A stretch of DNA of 25,360 nucleotides from a virus (lineage: Duplodnaviria; Heunggongvirae; Uroviricota; Caudoviricetes). The DNA lies in IMG/VR virus record IMGVR_UViG_2529292905_000020; one strand, written 5' to 3'. Within the stretch, counting starts at the first letter, position 1. Every line of letters starts with the position of its first letter. The position numbers and the translations under genes are program-made. Below, one piece after another: positions 4,139-25,360 of this stretch. The notes below the pieces were generated by a model. The model was not told the origin of the DNA and made no database searches. It saw only the letters and a list, made by a program, of their open reading frames with translations.

Positions 4139-4330
4139 TTAAAGACCTGCCGGGATTTCGTTATTATCCTGGTGAATAACTTTATCGACCGGGTAACAGT
4201 TACCGGGAATTTTCTGTTCGGTTGCTGCAGTCACACACTCCTGCATTGTCCTGTGAACACTGACTGCAATATCAACTGGCTCTCCGGAAACAAGAAAAAC
4301 TGTCAGAACAAGTGCAAATGCTGTATTCAT
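4139..4330 (-). CDS. ydfD: YdfD-like small protein (63 aa)
   Basis: Start chosen at internal ATG 4330 (MNTAFALVLTVFLVSG..., hydrophobic N-terminus), with AGGA 8 nt upstream. ATGA start/stop overlap with dicB. Sequence matches my recollection of Qin-prophage YdfD. Confidence 0.7.
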   Translation of the reverse strand: MNTAFALVLTVFLVSGEPVDIAVSVHRTMQECVTAATEQKIPGNCYPVDKVIHQDNNEIPAGL

Positions 4331-4515
4331 TGCCAGCATCCTTTTTGTATCGGACGTAAACGGGCCAGCATTGAAAGAATGCATATTTTATTTAATAACT
4401 CCCGTTCGTGTTTTCTCTTGTTAATGGCATCTTCAGTAAATACAGGGTTACTGATAGTGACACCAATTTCAAAACAACCTTCAGACGTATTAACGTTTGG
4501 TAATAACGTTTCCAT
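4327..4515 (-). CDS. dicB: DicB cell-division inhibitor (62 aa)
   Basis: METLLPNVNTSEGCFEIGVTISNPVFTEDAINKRKHERELLNKICILSMLARL... matches remembered DicB. GAGGA 7 nt upstream of ATG 4515. The ORF-track start at 4620 is probably an upstream extension. Confidence 0.85.
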   Translation of the reverse strand: METLLPNVNTSEGCFEIGVTISNPVFTEDAINKRKHERELLNKICILSMLARLRPIQKGCWQ

Positions 4516-4684
4516 TATCGCGTCCTCAACAATGAATTTTGTGATGCGGTGCCTGGTGCCTCCAGGTGACGTTAACCAGTTAACAATTAACGCCGGATAC
4601 AGTGAATCCCCCCATAACACTGTTTTTAGCTTTAACTGTTCCGCGTGCGCTTAGCCGCATTCACTGCATCACAAAATTCACTTT

Positions 4685-11667: not shown

Positions 11668-12002
11668 CATCCTCGTCCTTCAGGACGTGGATTCTTTTTC
11701 CGGATGCCGCGCCAGCGGCATGTAGGGGCAGCTCACAAAACGGAAAAAATTGTACGCTAAGCCTCGCCAGGTGAACTGAATTCATTCCGATATGGGAATT
11801 CCCATATCGGGCGAAAACGGTTTGCTGTAACGGCAGAGTTAAGTAGGATTGCTGCGGGTGCTTGAGGCTATCTGCCTCGGGCATGAACACCAACGGCAGA
11901 TAGATAAAAGCCCCACCCGACTATAAATCGAAGTGAGGCCCCTATATGCTCGTCACATATAGATTGCCTCTTACGGACCGAAAGGTCAAGGAGAAGCAGG
12001 CT

Positions 12003-12158
12003 ATGAAGCAGCAAAAGGCGATGTTAATCGCCCTGATCGTCATCTGTTTAACCGTCATAGTGACGGCACTGGTAACGAGGAAAGACCTCTGCGAGGTACG
12101 AATCCGAACCGGCCAGACGGAGGTCGCTGTCTTCACAGCTTACGAACCTGAGGAGTAA
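12003..12158 (+). CDS. hokD: Hok/Gef-family membrane toxin (51 aa)
   Basis: MKQQKAMLIALIVICLTVIVTALVTRKDLCEVRIRTGQTEVAVFTAYEPEE is a Hok-family sequence, matching my recollection of HokD/RelF. Structured leader and 3' fold-back complement present. Confidence 0.85.
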   Translation: MKQQKAMLIALIVICLTVIVTALVTRKDLCEVRIRTGQTEVAVFTAYEPEE

Positions 12159-12386: not shown

Positions 12387-13274
12387 TCAGGCTGCCAGAT
12401 CATCGTTTCTGATGGAAGCATAATAAGCTTTTTCTGCTTCTGCCGGAGGGATATGACCCAGCCTTCCCAGCAATCGTCGATTGTTATACCAGTCCACCCA
12501 CGTGAGTGTGGCCAGTTCCACTTCTGCACGGTTTTTCCAGCTCTTACGGTGTATTACCTCCGCTTTGTAAAGACCATTGATGCTCTCCGCCATCGCGTTG
12601 TCATACGAGTCACCTGTACTCCCTGTTGATGCCAGCAGTTTTGCTTCTTTTAGTCGCTCCGTATAGGCCAGTGATACATACTGAGAACCTTTATCACTGT
12701 GATGGACTGTGCCGGACGGCCGACGGGCCCACAACGCCTGCTCCAGTGCATCCAGCACGAATGTCGTTTCCATAGACGATGAGACTCGCCACCCCACGAT
12801 GCATCCGGCAAACACATCAATGATGAACGCCACATAGACGAAGCCCTGCCATGTGCTGACGTAAGTAAAATCAGCCACCCACAGCTGGTCAGGACGTTCT
12901 GCCACGAACTGACGGTTTACGCGGTCGCCTGCGGAAACGGCTTTCCGGCTGACGGTAGTACGGACCTTTTTACCCCGGAGAACACCGGCAAGTCCCATAA
13001 CCGCCATGAGGCGCGCCACTGTACATCTGGCCACCCTGATACCTTCGCGTAACAACTGGCGCCAGACTTTACGCACACCGTACACCTGATGATTTTCATC
13101 GTATACGCGCTGTATCTCTCTCTTCAGCCAGTCATCGCGCTGCGCACGGGCACTGCGTTTATCAGGATGATGTCGCTGTTGCTGACAGTGGTAATACGTT
13201 GACGGGGCAATATGCAGTTCACTGCATACCGGTCCGACCCCGTACTGCTCACGCAGCTTATCCAGCAGTGGCAT
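12387..13274 (-). CDS. IS629 transposase OrfB (DDE catalytic domain)
   Basis: 295-aa ORF with the IS3-family OrfB C-terminus (...LGHIPPAEAEKAYYASIRNDDLAA). Confidence 0.9.
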   Translation of the reverse strand: MPLLDKLREQYGVGPVCSELHIAPSTYYHCQQQRHHPDKRSARAQRDDWLKREIQRVYDENHQVYGVRKVWRQLLREGIRVARCTVARLMAVMGLAGVLRGKKVRTTVSRKAVSAGDRVNRQFVAERPDQLWVADFTYVSTWQGFVYVAFIIDVFAGCIVGWRVSSSMETTFVLDALEQALWARRPSGTVHHSDKGSQYVSLAYTERLKEAKLLASTGSTGDSYDNAMAESINGLYKAEVIHRKSWKNRAEVELATLTWVDWYNNRRLLGRLGHIPPAEAEKAYYASIRNDDLAA

Positions 13275-13600
13275 TATTTTTTCCAGAGGCGGTCGAACTC
13301 CGCCTTCGCAAAATAAGCGGAAGCCTGGCGAAGGATATCGTTACTGCGGCGCAGTTCACGATTTTCACGTTCCAGCTCTTTCAGACGCTGACGTTCAGCG
13401 GTGGTGAATCCACCATCACCACTCCCGGTATCCCGCTCATGCTGACGAACCCACACACGCAGAGTCTCTGGCGTACAGCCAATCTTTGGGGCAATGGAAC
13501 AAATTGCCGCCCATTGTGAGTCATATTCGCCCTGACTTTCCAGAACCATACGAACTGCCCGTTGACGGACCTCGGGGGAAAAACGTGTATTTTTAGTCAT
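13274..13600 (-). CDS. IS629 transposase OrfA (HTH)
   Basis: 108-aa [22 protein letters not shown]... matching remembered IS629 OrfA. Its stop overlaps the OrfB ATG (TAATG) beside an A6 run. Confidence 0.9.
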
Positions 13601-16601: not shown

Positions 16602-16677
16602 GGCCCTTTAGCTCAGTGGTGAGAGCGAGCGACTCATAATCGCCAGGTCGCTGGTTCAAATCCAGCAAGGGCCACCA
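16602..16677 (+). tRNA. ileZ: tRNA-Ile2 (anticodon CAU, lysidine type)
   Basis: 76-nt cloverleaf. Acceptor GGCCCTT/AAGGGCC, anticodon loop CUCAUAA, T-loop TTCAAAT, encoded CCA. Closely resembles E. coli ileX. Confidence 0.9.
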
Positions 16678-16680
16678 ACC

Positions 16681-16754
16681 GCCACCAGCCATCAGGAAAG
16701 AGCGTCAACCCTTTAAGTTGAGTGTGCGAGGTTCGAGTCCCCGGTGGTGGTCCA
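16681..16754 (+). tRNA. Atypical tRNA-like sequence (degenerate argN-like?)
   Basis: Acceptor and T-arm can be drawn (T-loop TTCGAGT). Anticodon stem TCAAC/GTTGA with loop CCTTTAA (C at position 33, anticodon UUU by position). No canonical D-stem. Identity uncertain. Confidence 0.35.
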
Positions 16755-16767
16755 TTATCGGTATTCT

Positions 16768-16841
16768 GCGTTGTTAGCTCAGCAGGACAGAGCAATTGCC
16801 TTCTAAGCAATCGGTCACTGGTTCGACTCCAGTACAACGCG
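16768..16841 (+). tRNA. argO: tRNA-Arg (anticodon UCU)
   Basis: 74-nt cloverleaf. Acceptor GCGTTGT/ACAACGC, D-stem GCTC/GAGC, anticodon stem ATTGC/GCAAT with loop CTTCTAA, T-arm ACTGG-TTCGACT-CCAGT. 3' CCA not encoded. The argO name is positional (third tRNA of the Stx-phage-type trio). Confidence 0.85.
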
Positions 16842-17610: not shown

Positions 17611-17811
17611 TTTTTTTGTTTGCTGTTTATTAAAAACACTTCTGCATGGTGAATCCCCCTGTGCGGTGGGGCAATCAGCAAGAAGGAATATGGGGTAATC
17701 GCGGATTCAGGTGCTGATACTGAATTCACCGGGAGGCACCCGGCACCATGCTTTGCCACAAAAGTGTTATTTCTGTTTTTCTCAAACTATCATCGTTATC
17801 CCTTTATTTTC

Positions 17812-21854: not shown

Positions 21855-22169
21855 ATGCTACATGATCACGTGGCAGAATGTCTAGAGAAAAAAGGACTGT
21901 ACCGGAGAGCAGCTGAACGATGGGCAAAAGTGATGGTACAGCTAAGTGATGACCAGAAAAGAAAAGTGGCGGCACAGAAACGAGCAGAGTGTTTGCGTAA
22001 GGCGCGCCGGACTCCGGTTTCACCGGTGAACCTGACCGAAATAAAACAAGCGGTCAACAGACTACATTCTGAGTTGGGAATGGGATTTGAAGAGCGGCGG
22101 GTATTCCGACGATATAAAGGGACAGGAGAACAGAATACGTCCGGAAACGCGCGGTCAAAAAAATGCTAA
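21855..22169 (+). CDS. PerC-family transcriptional regulator (Pch-like)
   Basis: 104-aa ORF with GGAGG upstream. N-terminal VAECLEKKGLYRRAAERWAKVM resembles the conserved PerC/Pch N-terminus. AT-rich, preceded by a T-rich tract. Confidence 0.55.
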   Translation: MLHDHVAECLEKKGLYRRAAERWAKVMVQLSDDQKRKVAAQKRAECLRKARRTPVSPVNLTEIKQAVNRLHSELGMGFEERRVFRRYKGTGEQNTSGNARSKKC

Positions 22170-22250: not shown

Positions 22251-22475
22251 TTAAGTAAACCTGTCTGAACAGGTGCTCTGGTCGTGTTTGTCTTTGTTGG
22301 GTACAAATTGAGAATATTTTTCATTAATTAATCTTCTTCTGCAGGCTTCAATAACCCACGCTGAAAAATTACCTGAACCTTTCTGGTCAAGAGCGATGTT
22401 AATTTGTTCAATCATCTGGTTTGGAAATCGGATGTTGCGGGTTGTTGTTCTGCGGGTCCGGTTTTTCGGTGACAT
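22251..22475 (-). CDS. Putative ribbon-helix-helix DNA-binding protein
   Basis: 74-aa ORF with GAGGAAAG upstream. RNIRFPNQMIEQINIALDQKGSGNFSAWVIEACRRRL fits a beta-strand then helix-helix RHH pattern. Confidence 0.45.
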   Translation of the reverse strand: MSPKNRTRRTTTRNIRFPNQMIEQINIALDQKGSGNFSAWVIEACRRRLINEKYSQFVPNKDKHDQSTCSDRFT

Positions 22476-22516
22476 TTTCTTTCCTCTGGTAACAAGCTAT
22501 ATGGCGAGGATTTTAC

Positions 22517-22978
22517 ATGGCCGTGCTTCGTACGTTACCGGGCAGAATCAAAACTCTGAATACCCGGCGGGTGAATGTCCTGAAGGGTGAACAGCGTCGG
22601 GTCAGTGGCAGTGCCCGGGTTTCCCTCAAGCGTCGTATCTGGCTGAGGGATGCCGGACAGTGCTGTCTCTGTGGGCGTGTGGTTGACCTTTGTGACAGTG
22701 AACTCGATCACCGCATTGCACTTCAGTTCGGTGGTGGTAATGAGGAGACGAATCTCTGGACGCTCTGTACCGAATGCCATCGCCAGAAGTCAGTCAGTGA
22801 AACGGCGAGTGGTATGCCGGACCCGACGCTGCCGGAGGTCATGGCAGGGCAGACGATATCATCGGACTGTGACCCGCCCCGGGGGGGGATCATCCGGCGA
22901 AAAAAACGATCGTCCCGGACACCGCCCCCCGTCTCACGCAGAGAAAAAATTCCCGTTTCAGGGCTGTTAACATGTTAA
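22517..22978 (+). CDS. HNH endonuclease (terminase-associated)
   Basis: 153-aa ORF with GAGGA upstream. Motif CCLCGR...DHRIALQFGG...NLWTLCTECHRQK. Directly upstream of the terminase genes. The 3' end runs through homopolymer tracts, so its exact end is uncertain. Confidence 0.8.
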   Translation: MAVLRTLPGRIKTLNTRRVNVLKGEQRRVSGSARVSLKRRIWLRDAGQCCLCGRVVDLCDSELDHRIALQFGGGNEETNLWTLCTECHRQKSVSETASGMPDPTLPEVMAGQTISSDCDPPRGGIIRRKKRSSRTPPPVSRREKIPVSGLLTC

Positions 22979-23089
22979 CTGGCTGTCCGGGCATTTTTGC
23001 GGTTTTTATCTTTATTATTCAGTTTGTTGCGTGGAAAAAATGTTAACAGGCTTTTTCAGCAAATGTTAACCAGGCAGCAGTTAACATTT
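22965..23089. repeat. Cluster of five GTTAAC-containing motifs (candidate terminase-binding / cos-proximal sites)
   Basis: GTTAAC at 22966, 22974, 23042, 23065, 23080. Includes the palindrome GTTAACATGTTAAC (22966-22979) and inverted pair AAATGTTAAC / GTTAACATTT (23061-23070 / 23080-23089). Confidence 0.45.
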
Positions 23090-23161
23090 GCGGCATGAGA
23101 CGCCGGGAAAAATGGGCTGAACCATACCCGGCTGAGTGCGTTATGGACCCGGGAGGAGGCT

Positions 23162-23725
23162 GTGCTGACAACGCAAAAACGAAAATTTGCGCTGGCGCTC
23201 ATGTCCGGGAAAAACAAAACAGCGTCAGCCCTTGCCGCCGGTTATTCGGCGAAGACCGCCAGGGTTAAAGGCTCGCAGCTGGCAAAAGATCCGGAGGTGC
23301 TTGCGTTTATAGCCCGTAAACAGTGCGAAACGGTGGAGGTGGATGAGGTTCCTGTTTACCGGCAGAAAAAATCAGAGCAGGAGGATAAACCCCGTCGCCG
23401 TGAGGTGGCTGCAATACCACAGCCGGACGAAAAAAATCCGGAGATGCCTCCGCCCGCGGTGATATCTCATGGTATTGAATATATGGAGGATGGTCTTCCC
23501 GATCCGGTGAAAGCTATGGGGCAGATCCTGGTGGAAAACCTGATAATTGACCCGAAACTGGCACTGGATGCGGCCTGGCGACTGGCGCAGTTCACACACC
23601 ATAAAAAAGGCGATGCCGGTAAAAAATCGGCAAAAGGTGATGCCGCGAAAAAAGCGGCTAACCGTTTTTCGGTGCCACCATCTCCCCGACTGGTGGTGAA
23701 TAACCAGAATGAGGAAAGCGGATGA
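23162..23725 (+). CDS. Terminase small subunit
   Basis: 187-aa ORF, GTG start with GGAGGAGG upstream. N-terminal KRKFALALMSGKNKTASALAAGYSAKTARVKGSQLAKDPEV resembles small-terminase DNA-binding domains. ATGA overlap with the large subunit. Confidence 0.8.
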   Translation: MLTTQKRKFALALMSGKNKTASALAAGYSAKTARVKGSQLAKDPEVLAFIARKQCETVEVDEVPVYRQKKSEQEDKPRRREVAAIPQPDEKNPEMPPPAVISHGIEYMEDGLPDPVKAMGQILVENLIIDPKLALDAAWRLAQFTHHKKGDAGKKSAKGDAAKKAANRFSVPPSPRLVVNNQNEESG

Positions 23726-25176
23726 TACCTGTATGGAGCACGGCATGTCCGGACTGGGCAGAGCGCCTGAAAAAGGGACTGTCGATTATTCCGGCTCCGA
23801 TTTATCCGGACCAGGCTGCACATGCACTGGCGATTTTTAAACAACTGCGGATTGTGGATGCACCGGGTAGCCCGACGTTCGGGGAGTCCTGCGCACAGTG
23901 GGTGTTTGACCTGGTGGCGGCCCTGTTTGGCTCCTATGATGCGCAGACCGGTGTACGCCATATCAAGGAAGTTTTTATCCTTATCCCCAAGAAAAACAGT
24001 AAGTCCACGCTGGCCGCGGGGATCATGATGACGGCGCTGTTACTGAACTGGCGGCAGGCGGCGGGCTACACCATTCTGGCCCCGACCGTGGAGGTGGCGG
24101 CTAACGCCTTCAACCCTGCCAGGGATATGGTACGACGGGACGATGATCTGGATGACCTCTGTCAGGTGCAGACACATATCCGGACCATCACCCATCGGGT
24201 GACGGACACCACCCTGAAGGTGGTGGCAGCCGATCCGAATACGGTGTCCGGTATCAAGTCCGTGGGGACACTGATTGATGAACTGTGGCTGTTTGGCAAG
24301 CAGTACAAAGCGGAAGACATGCTACGTGAAGCCATCGGCGGGCTTGCCTCCCGTCCGGAAGGATTTGTGGTGTACACAACCACCCAGTCGAATGAACCGC
24401 CTGCCGGGGTGTTCAGACAGAAACTGCAGTACGCCCGGGATGTCCGTGACGGCAAAATTCATGATCCGCACTTTCTGCCGGTGATTTTTGAGCATCCTCC
24501 TGAAATGGTGGAAAGCGGGGCTCACCTGCTGATGGAAAACCTCGCCATGGTTAACCCGAATCTCGGTTATTCGGTGGATGAGGCTTTTCTGTACCGGGAG
24601 TACCGTAAAGCCCGGGAGGCTGGTGAGGAAGCATTTCGTGGCTTCATGTCAAAACACGCCAATGTGGAAATCGGTCTTGCCCTGCGTTCTGACCGCTGGG
24701 CGGGCGCGGATTTCTGGGAGCAGCAGGGCAGGCGCGTCAGCCTGGACGATATCCTGCAGCGCGCTGATGTGGTGACGGTGGGGATTGACGGCGGGGGCCT
24801 GGATGATCTGCTGGGAATGTACGTGATTGGCCGTGACAGGGAAACCCGCGAATGGCTGGGCTGGGGCCATGCCTGGGTGCATGAAACCGCGGTGGTCAGA
24901 CGGAAGAGTGAGGCATCCCGGTTTCAGGATTTTGTGGCCTGTGGAGACATGACGATTGTCCGTCGGGTCGGGGATGACACGGCGGAAGTGGCGGAGTATG
25001 TGCGTCGTATTCATGAGGCTGAGTTACTGGATCATATCGGTATTGACCCGTCAGGTGTGGGGCAGATTCTGGATTCACTGGCGGAAGCCGGGATCCCCGA
25101 TGAGAGTGTGGTGGGGATAAGCCAGGGCTGGAAGCTGGGCGGGGCCATCAAAAACCACCGAGCGCAAACTGGCTGA
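23722..25176 (+). CDS. Terminase large subunit, reading frame interrupted near its 3' end
   Basis: 484-aa ORF with P-loop-like LIPKKNSKST. Ends ...GGAIKNHRAQTG-stop; homology clearly continues in the +1 frame from about 25157. Apparent 1-bp insertion in the A5 run at 25150-25154. Confidence 0.85.
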   Translation: MIPVWSTACPDWAERLKKGLSIIPAPIYPDQAAHALAIFKQLRIVDAPGSPTFGESCAQWVFDLVAALFGSYDAQTGVRHIKEVFILIPKKNSKSTLAAGIMMTALLLNWRQAAGYTILAPTVEVAANAFNPARDMVRRDDDLDDLCQVQTHIRTITHRVTDTTLKVVAADPNTVSGIKSVGTLIDELWLFGKQYKAEDMLREAIGGLASRPEGFVVYTTTQSNEPPAGVFRQKLQYARDVRDGKIHDPHFLPVIFEHPPEMVESGAHLLMENLAMVNPNLGYSVDEAFLYREYRKAREAGEEAFRGFMSKHANVEIGLALRSDRWAGADFWEQQGRRVSLDDILQRADVVTVGIDGGGLDDLLGMYVIGRDRETREWLGWGHAWVHETAVVRRKSEASRFQDFVACGDMTIVRRVGDDTAEVAEYVRRIHEAELLDHIGIDPSGVGQILDSLAEAGIPDESVVGISQGWKLGGAIKNHRAQTG

Positions 25177-25360
25177 GGGAGTGCTGGTGCATGGTGGTCA
25201 GCCACTGATGGCCTGGTGCGTTGGCAATGCCCGGGTGGAGCCTAAAGGTAACGCCATTCTTATCACCAAACAGGCCAGCGGACGGGGAAAAATTGACCCG
25301 CTGATGGCGCTGTTCAATGCGGTCTCCCTGATGTCCCTTAACCCGGAACCGAAAAAGAAA
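25157..25360 (+). other. Out-of-frame continuation of the large terminase coding sequence (partial, runs off the window)
   Basis: +1 frame reads TERKLAEGVLVHGGQPLMAWCVGNARVEPKGNAILITKQASGRGKIDPLMALFNAVSLMS... with no stop to the window end. Confidence 0.6.

Follow-up and report, generated by a model that had tools for sequence, protein, structure and literature searches.

A probable cosB-like array of small-terminase sites beside the cos core of a Stx-type lambdoid prophage

Results

Five GTTAAC copies lie between the HNH and small terminase genes

The stretch of DNA analysed here, hereafter the window (25,360 nt), is a Stx-type lambdoid E. coli prophage. An array of GTTAAC motifs lies in its HNH-terS interval (Table 1). 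Going towards the array, one passes Rz/Rz1, then genes of the PerC family and of DUF3950 (the latter on the minus strand), and last an HNH gene. The HNH gene is the next gene upstream of terS and terL, and terL is of the TerL_ATPase type (relatives also match TerL_nuclease), which is the gene order of an HK97-type HNH-dependent module; HNH endonucleases are the partners of HK97-type terminases. The HNH ORF of the window is 153 codons long, and its 3' end (22840-22978) extends across both the G-run and the predicted cohesive end; in relatives the HNH protein is 121 aa and stops just before the G-run, and the window's tail appears to result from a frame change after ...LPEV rather than to be a conserved extension. 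The terL frame breaks near residue 476 as compared to intact 553-aa relatives (window 25100-25360), reading GGAIKNHRAQTG and then a stop where relatives have GGAIKTTERKLAEGVLVHGG, whose continuation is found in a different frame of the window; this copy of the prophage may be packaging-defective, or else the sequence may be in error there.

Table 1. Features of the packaging region. Offsets count from the predicted packaged left end (+1 = 22933).
Feature	Coordinates	Strand	Remarks
HNH endonuclease gene	22517..22978	+	Pfam HNH; ORF tail crosses the cos core and ends inside site 2
G8 run, then ATCA as in HK97	22881..22888	+	Upstream part of the conserved cos core
Predicted 10-nt 3' cohesive end (cosN), CGCCCCCCGT	22923..22932	+	By homology with the Bcep176 and HK97 record ends
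Conserved segment +1 to +22, CTCACGCAGAGAAAAAATTCCC, with A-tract	22933..22954	+	Identical across motif classes
Sites 1 and 2, palindrome GTTAACATGTTAAC	22966..22979	.	Sites at +34 and +40, palindrome +34 to +47; GTTAAC at 22966-22971 and 22974-22979; ancestral, family-wide part of the array
T-tract-rich spacer, site 2 to site 3	22980..23039	+	T-runs and TTATTCA kept in L168, L164, L169, L173, and L175 despite sequence divergence
Site 3, ATGTTAAC	23040..23047	+	Offset +108; GTTAAC at 23042-23047; class-2 loci have ATGTTTAT at the same offset
Site 4, ATGTTAAC	23063..23070	+	Offset +131; GTTAAC at 23065-23070; left arm of the inverted pair; class-2 loci have ATGTTTAC
Site 5, ATGTTAAC	23080..23087	-	Offset +148; GTTAAC at 23080-23085; right arm of the inverted pair; class-2 loci have GTAAACAT
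terS (Terminase_2; GTG start 23162)	23162..23725	+	Start at +230; Pfam Terminase_2, E 5.8e-8; SF6-type N-terminal helix-turn-helix
terL, HK97-like	23722..25176	+	Pfam TerL_ATPase; frameshifted in the window

Five of the 11 GTTAAC copies in the window fall in the array, which spans +34 to +155, and each is contained in an exact copy of the 8-mer ATGTTAAC. Copies 1 (minus strand, 22966-22973) and 2 (plus strand, 22972-22979) overlap to form a 14-bp palindrome, and copies 4 and 5 belong to a perfect 12-nt inverted repeat, GCAAATGTTAAC-n9-GTTAACATTTGC, at 23059-23091. A preliminary description of this DNA had placed five copies within 125 bp between HNH and the small terminase gene, arranged as palindromes and an inverted pair and far more numerous than chance would allow; the location and arrangement are as described, and the clustering is borne out by both shuffling and calculation. 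In 2000 dinucleotide-preserving shuffles of the window the most GTTAAC copies found in any 125 nt was three, which occurred once; five were reached in 0 of 20,000 shuffles of 22933-23161; and Poisson estimates from local base composition are ~4e-10 for the 6-mer GTTAAC and ~6e-14 for the 8-mer.

The T-tract-rich spacer between sites 2 and 3 is possibly intrinsically bent. The IHF consensus WATCAANNNNTTR had no match, at up to one mismatch, in 22980-23040, and the conserved T-tracts may take the place of the IHF bend of lambda. A 24-codon hydrophobic ORF at 22972-23046 (MLTGCPGIFAVFIFIIQFVAWKKC) was rejected as a gene: its frame is open in L168 but meets a stop after 14 codons in L164 and after 5 in L169, and an A-run indel affects it within the E. 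coli lineage. An Rfam search of 22700-23300 at E up to 10 returned nothing but noise, no terminator was found near the array, and the search for sigma-70-like promoters gave one marginal antisense match made of the sites themselves. RefSeq E. coli genomes have no annotated feature under the array.

The array region is 95-99% identical to that of phages BP-4795, 1717, YYZ-2008, 2851, and many Stx1a/Stx2 phages, and the array itself matches a site in E. coli O55:H7 strain USDA5905 at 100% identity. The 141-nt array occurs in 1242 of 5426 complete E. coli genomes (23%), at up to 7 copies per genome and in 6 places on plasmids; the GTTTAY version of the array described below is present in only 11 genomes of this set. 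For PPompW prophages (hits H83-H89) the match starts only at base 35 of the query (~22884, within the G-run); the annotation places ISEc20, an element of the IS110 family, at this boundary, where it would presumably inactivate the PPompW cos site.

Several other features of the prophage were noted. The PerC-family (Pch-like) activator gene and the DUF3950 gene, at 21855-22169 and 22251-22475, occupy the interval from the lysis genes to HNH, and the DUF3950 protein looks from its sequence like a ribbon-helix-helix protein. A second small motif cluster, GTTAACcaGTTAACaATTAAC, lies at 4571-4591 with the 8-nt period of sites 1 and 2, just upstream of the DicB-domain part of a minus-strand ORF (4327-4620); it could be chance, the operator of another protein, or a stray TerS site. 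Rfam matches elsewhere in the prophage, at 11856-12005, 12387-13600, 16602-16841, and 17615-17787, are to sok antitoxin RNA (a hok/sok-type module), the ALIL frameshift pseudoknot, two tRNA genes, and the sRNA STnc100; the ALIL pseudoknot is inside minus-strand ORFs 12387-13274 and 13274-13600.

The array begins 34 bp inside a predicted packaged end

We compared the region with 19 relatives from other Enterobacterales genera, 11 viral contigs, Burkholderia phages, and HK97. A common architecture lies in the noncoding DNA between HNH and terS: a run of 7-8 G, ~30-35 nt, ACCGC(C/G)CCCC, and then CTCACGCRCAGAAAAAATTCCC. The G7-8 run stands ~30-35 nt before ACCGCC in HK97, in the Enterobacterales relatives, and in the E. 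coli relatives, and the segment from +1 to +22 hardly varies between E. coli and Burkholderia. Part of the right half of cos is present a second time, as ACGCCGGGAAAAAT, at 23100-23113.

Close relatives of the window are all prophage records, and usable genome ends came from the Burkholderia relatives and HK97 only. The record of Bcep176 has the same 10 nt, CGCACGTTCC, at both ends, directly before CTCACGCGCAGAAAAT, and this decamer aligns with CGCCCCCCGT of the window. The HK97 record, which begins GTTTGAATTT and ends ACCGCCGCCAAA, aligns with the window in architecture and at ACCGCC, and its last 10 nt, CGCCGCCAAA, likewise align with CGCCCCCCGT. HK97 cleavage leaves a 10-nt 3' overhang, and the HK97 TerS site, at +15 to +29, is on the array's side of the cut (PMC11331095). 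By homology to these two database records we predict a 10-nt 3' overhang here also, with the packaged left end (+1) at 22933. In a search for phage records ending inside the element, those of vB_E228 and vB_E184 proved to begin at other, apparently arbitrary points.

The position of the array, beside the predicted nick, on the first-packaged side, and upstream of terS, fits a site of lambda cosB type, as does its content of several copies of a short motif that include inverted ones. Headful (pac) packaging is not supported, the module being an HNH-dependent cos module and the records of relatives starting at defined ends.

The motif is a DNA-level element in distant relatives

The preliminary description had proposed motif conservation in related phages as a check. 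The same offset is occupied by a motif copy in each of 19 genome and 11 viral loci, with one or two copies in distant Enterobacterales relatives. In 17 of the 19 genome relatives terS begins ATGTTAACAG, so that the motif overlaps the start codon, and upstream of it stands GTAAAC, ATAAAC, or ATTAAC, producing a near-palindrome centred on the start codon. The bases of ATGTTAACAG are invariant, although later terS codons vary synonymously. In Proteus and Pantoea-type relatives terS starts instead with ATGCTAACA, ATGCTGACA, or ATGCTTACA (ATGCTxACA), and one or two noncoding GTTAAC copies are found at the same distance, 16-17 nt past the A-tract. The invariance of ATGTTAACAG amid synonymous change, together with the noncoding copies where terS starts ATGCTxACA, indicates that the motif is a DNA-level element and not a by-product of codons.

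The window has the ATGCTxACA-type arrangement, with the proximal palindrome where other relatives have the ancestral start codon, and a 180-bp spacer holding three further copies between this palindrome and the present GTG start. These further copies, sites 3-5, are restricted to the E. coli lineage and one satellite-like locus. Across 61 distinct sequences of E. coli type the motifs do not vary, but almost none of the spacer varies either, and within this lineage site-specific constraint is thus inseparable from recent common descent. In viral contigs L112-L114 the site after the A-tract is ATTAAC, and GTTAAC/GTTAAT repeats (GTTAACtgGTTAATtaccgGGTTAATtac...catGTTAAC) lie upstream of the G-run, ~170-120 nt upstream of terS and across the predicted cut from the usual site.

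Motif class follows three residues of TerS

Intermediate relatives within E. coli, which we found by protein search before reading their contigs, fall into three classes by the sequence of their sites (Table 2). All three share the cos core, and each pairs one motif with one version of the predicted TerS recognition helix: KTARVKGS with GTTAAC, KSARCKGS with GTTTAY, and KTARVKG(W/C) with GTTACAC. Every site of the array changes at once. The class-2 sites are found at +34, +40, +106/107, +130/131, and +147/148 (L164 and L169), and the five-site layout of L164, L165, L169, and L177 stays within 2 nt of the window's offsets, as measured in L164 and L169; the L170 contig covers the last three sites only. 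In the GTTACAC elements L171, L173, and L174 the AAGTTACAC sites occupy the same place as the window's array, and L173 has an inverted pair and a T-rich spacer like those of the window. The sites also persist where the DNA between them has diverged, in L175 and in L168, which has kept its GTTAAC sites and has a sixth copy.

Table 2. Motif classes among E. coli loci with the conserved cos core.
Class	TerS residues 31-40	Loci	Sites
1	KTAR(V/I)KGS(Q/R)L	L162, L166, L168	Five or six GTTAAC in the window's layout
2	KSARCKGSQL	L164, L165, L169, L170	Window's layout; every site ATGTTTAY or RTAAACAT
3	KTARVKG(W/C)QL	L171, L172, L173, L174	AAGTTACAC sites (1, 2, or 6 including variant copies) past the same cos core

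The relation between motif class and TerS residues 32, 35, and 38 is without exception among full E. coli-lineage arrays and the GTTACAC elements. L169 carries a class-2 N-terminus and class-2 sites on a TerS that otherwise resembles P0015. When we predicted the motif from the TerS protein sequence alone, all three predictions were confirmed: P0012 (EKTARV) has five GTTAAC, P0004 (EKSARC) has a full GTTTAY array, and P0011 (EKSARC) has GTAAACAT at the last site, the one part of the array in its contig. Among distant relatives there are two exceptions, L008, whose TerS has S32/S35 but whose half-site is ATTAAC, and L112, which has ATTAAC and not GTTAAC. Because the sites and the TerS N-terminus are adjacent on the genome they would be co-inherited whatever their function, and independent class switches are few, perhaps 2-4.

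The class-linked residues map to a predicted recognition helix

An AlphaFold2 model of TerS is confident over residues 1-56 (pLDDT >92), with helices at 4-14, 19-25, 33-41, and 44-56. The best Foldseek match of this N-terminal four-helix domain is 4zc3, a structure of the SF6 small-terminase DNA-binding domain (TM 0.84, rmsd 1.6 A, probability 1.00, over 56 columns), and a weak sequence match agrees with an SF6-type TerS fold (structures 4zc3/2cmp). Residues 32, 35, and 38 would thus be at or on the recognition helix, the third of the model. terS encodes a small terminase with an SF6-type N-terminal helix-turn-helix, and we propose, from sequence and this model, that this protein is the reader of the sites.

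Other candidate readers do not track the motif classes. The DUF3950 protein is 83% identical to that of the window in both L162, which has GTTAAC, and L164, which has GTTTAY, and L165 lacks it; the identity of TerL is 96.5% in class-2 L164 and 84% in class-1 L168, which has GTTAAC; and HNH does not track motif class. A host factor is unlikely, since all three motif classes occur in E. coli. The constancy of the +1 to +22 segment across TerS classes suggests recognition by the conserved TerL/HNH, or of its shape, as the more likely case.

Satellite-like loci carry the cos core with their own TerS and sites

Three of the class-3 loci, L171, L172 (901-1389), and L173 (901-1374), are E. coli loci that look like satellites and carry the cos core of Stx-type phages. 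L173 has alpA beside terS; in L171 and L172 terS is followed by a capsid gene, with no terL. In the neighbourhood read, TerS is the only neighbouring gene that these loci have in common with the phage. The C-terminus of the L173 TerS is shared with the phage TerS of L168, and only the helix (S38W) and the motif (GTTACAC) are changed. S38W in the TerS helix and AAGTTACAC sites are common to the three loci. These features suggest that L171-L173 hijack the TerL/HNH of this phage family.

Discussion

We consider it likely that the five ATGTTAAC copies form a cosB-like array, in which each site would bind the helix-turn-helix domains of the phage's own TerS. What argues most directly for such docking sites is that, across related phages and satellites, all sites switch motif in concert, and do so together with the putative DNA-reading helix of TerS. 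The preliminary description had left the choice between terminase recognition sites, cosB- or pac-like, and the binding array of a regulator; the first of these has gained support from the link of the motif to the TerS helix, the HK97-type cos, and the constant offset in relatives, and the second has lost ground, DUF3950 not following the motif.

HNH, TerS, and TerL would be made from the late operon, and a TerS oligomer would dock on the array, starting 34 bp inside the first-packaged end. Sites 1 and 2, the palindrome, would be the ancestral core; sites 3-5, beyond the T-tract spacer, would probably serve DNA bending or wrapping, so that several subunits are bound at once. Binding itself, the cleavage position (by homology), the geometry of such wrapping, and the division of labour between proximal and distal sites are the parts of this scheme that we infer; the motif statistics, the layout and its conserved position, the co-variation with the TerS helix, and the SF6-like fold are what the data show directly. 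The C-terminal part of TerS would then place TerL and HNH on the conserved cos core; the G-run/ACCGCC core and the +1 to +22 segment are presumably read by TerL with HNH, which would make a staggered cut leaving the 10-nt 3' overhang at ~22923-22932, and packaging would run rightwards. One may speculate that five or six sites in the E. coli lineage, as compared to one or two elsewhere, give higher specificity in genomes with up to 7 such prophages.

Palindromes and inverted pairs upstream of a gene are also typical of operators, and the array could be the operator of a phage transcription or translation regulator other than TerS, acting on terS/terL expression or on an antisense promoter. Candidate regulators are at hand in the DUF3950 gene, ~500 bp upstream, and the PerC-family gene close by, and the sole sigma-70-like match in 22400-23400 is made of sites 4 and 3, on the minus strand. 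This is, however, a single consensus match where 0.5 are expected by chance; the equal similarity of DUF3950 to the window's protein in a GTTAAC and a GTTTAY locus, and its absence from L165 with a full class-2 array, speak against it as the regulator; and L171-L173 have matching arrays while sharing only TerS with the phage in the neighbourhood read. We give an operator little chance of being the answer, and include in that judgement the variant in which the regulator is encoded elsewhere in the prophage. A structural role, with the inverted copies folding into a hairpin in late RNA, or into a cruciform, and the concerted change being compensatory co-variation, would accord with the predicted RNA fold of 22955-23100 (-43.5 kcal/mol, z = -3.26) and with the fact that the class-1 to class-2 change leaves every inverted pair complementary. 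We nonetheless regard it as highly improbable: relatives with a single site (L019, L111, L174) or with direct repeats only (L022, L108-L110, L171) have the motif at an unchanged offset, where it has nothing to pair with, the stems are A/U-rich and match no Rfam family, and structure alone leaves unexplained both the link of the motif to the TerS helix and the change of the direct copies 3 and 4.

It could also be that the proximal palindrome alone is functional, sites 3-5 being relics of a duplicated or recombined terS 5' end (ATG TTA ACA GGC), left when the E. coli lineage acquired a new start, GTG CTG ACA, located 190 bp further downstream. In most relatives terS starts with ATGTTAAC; copies 3 and 4 run on as AGGC and CAGGCAG, like ATGTTAACAGGGCAG of L021; the spacer holds the partial second cos right half; and its uniformity within the E. 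coli lineage is too great to reveal constraint on the sites. Relics would not, though, adopt the class-2 motif together and with their offsets unchanged, nor persist in L168 and L175 with their diverged spacers, with a sixth copy in L168, and L173 has an analogous multi-site array of a different motif. An origin of sites 3-5 by duplication is plausible, but their non-functionality alone is disfavoured, and we think it improbable that they are only relics.

If the array is indeed the docking site of TerS, a broader reading becomes possible, which we hold more tentatively and would not yet call probable: that TerS helix and motif form a switchable specificity code (T32/V35/S38 for GTTAAC, S32/C35 for GTTTAY, and W/C38 for GTTACAC) on an invariant cos core, letting co-resident Stx-type prophages and TerS-encoding satellites share TerL/HNH yet package their own DNA. 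On this reading the TerS-encoding PICIs of E. coli, hitherto without a helper, would parasitise this family of HNH-type phages. The array and cos core offer a handle on how Shiga-toxin phages choose DNA for packaging and on cross-packaging among co-resident prophages and satellites; the array also offers one on how a helix-turn-helix TerS of SF6 type reads DNA, which is still debated, and the natural variants of motif and helix are a ready set for specificity swaps. The packaging module concerned is carried by 23% of complete E. coli genomes, frequently in several copies, and by many phages that convert for Stx1/Stx2. In the literature that we searched on GTTAAC with terminase or cos, and on cos sites in Stx-type or cf-PICI elements, the present sites are not described. 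Elements in which TerS sites adjoin cos are of a known type, and what we describe appears, from sequence comparison, to be a lambda-cosB-like array for an SF6-type TerS in an HNH-dependent cos phage.

Lambda cosB consists of the R3, R2, and R1 sites for gpNu1 with the IHF site I1, and lambda has a 12-nt 5' overhang, a winged-helix gpNu1, and no HNH partner. The array resembles it in having short TerS repeats, some inverted, between the nick site and terS at the first-packaged end, with a bend-prone segment between proximal and distal sites and with specificity that would reside in the helix-turn-helix at the TerS N-terminus (for lambda cosB see also PMC6092414). Unlike lambda, the window has an HK97-like cos core, a predicted 10-nt 3' overhang, an adjacent HNH gene, and an SF6-like Terminase_2 TerS; it has no IHF consensus between sites 2 and 3, and its proximal unit is an overlapping palindrome. 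With HK97 cos the window shares G8-ATCA, ~30 nt, and ACCGCC, followed in the window by the predicted cut, as well as homologous HNH and TerL proteins and a TerS site, putative in the window, a few turns inside the packaged left end. HK97 TerS (gp1) reads one 15-bp A-tract site, with the DNA threaded through its ring (PMC11331095); here, unlike HK97, a TerS with an SF6-type helix-turn-helix would face 1-6 short repeats at +34 to +155. The window's TerS, a Terminase_2 protein with an SF6-like helix-turn-helix, is not of the gp1 type, and HK97 is absent among its tblastn matches; gp1 presumably belongs to a different family. That gp1, the one relative of the system with a characterised structure, reads a single site through a central tunnel counts against our reading of the array.

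The SPP1/SF6 protein G1P has the same fold of DNA-binding domain (4zc3/2cmp), and it binds several short repeated boxes (pacL/pacR) in intrinsically bent DNA; unlike the window's module, SPP1 and SF6 package by headful (pac), with no precise ends and no HNH partner, and their box sequences are unrelated. The satellite-like loci L171-L173 are like SaPI TerS systems and TerS-encoding E. coli PICIs in that each encodes a TerS DNA-binding domain of its own, matched by its sites. The targets of known SaPI TerS proteins are pac sites. Those E. coli PICIs that have been studied so far rely on Rpp and on cos sites of lambda/phi80 type (PMC6092414; 10.1101/2022.09.08.507074). Unlike those satellites, L171-L173 keep the cos core of Stx-type HNH phages. 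As far as sequence and the TerS model indicate, the closest functional counterpart of the array is lambda cosB, that of the cutting machinery and cos core is HK97, and that of the TerS DNA-binding domain is SF6/SPP1, the TerS belonging to neither the lambda nor the HK97 family.
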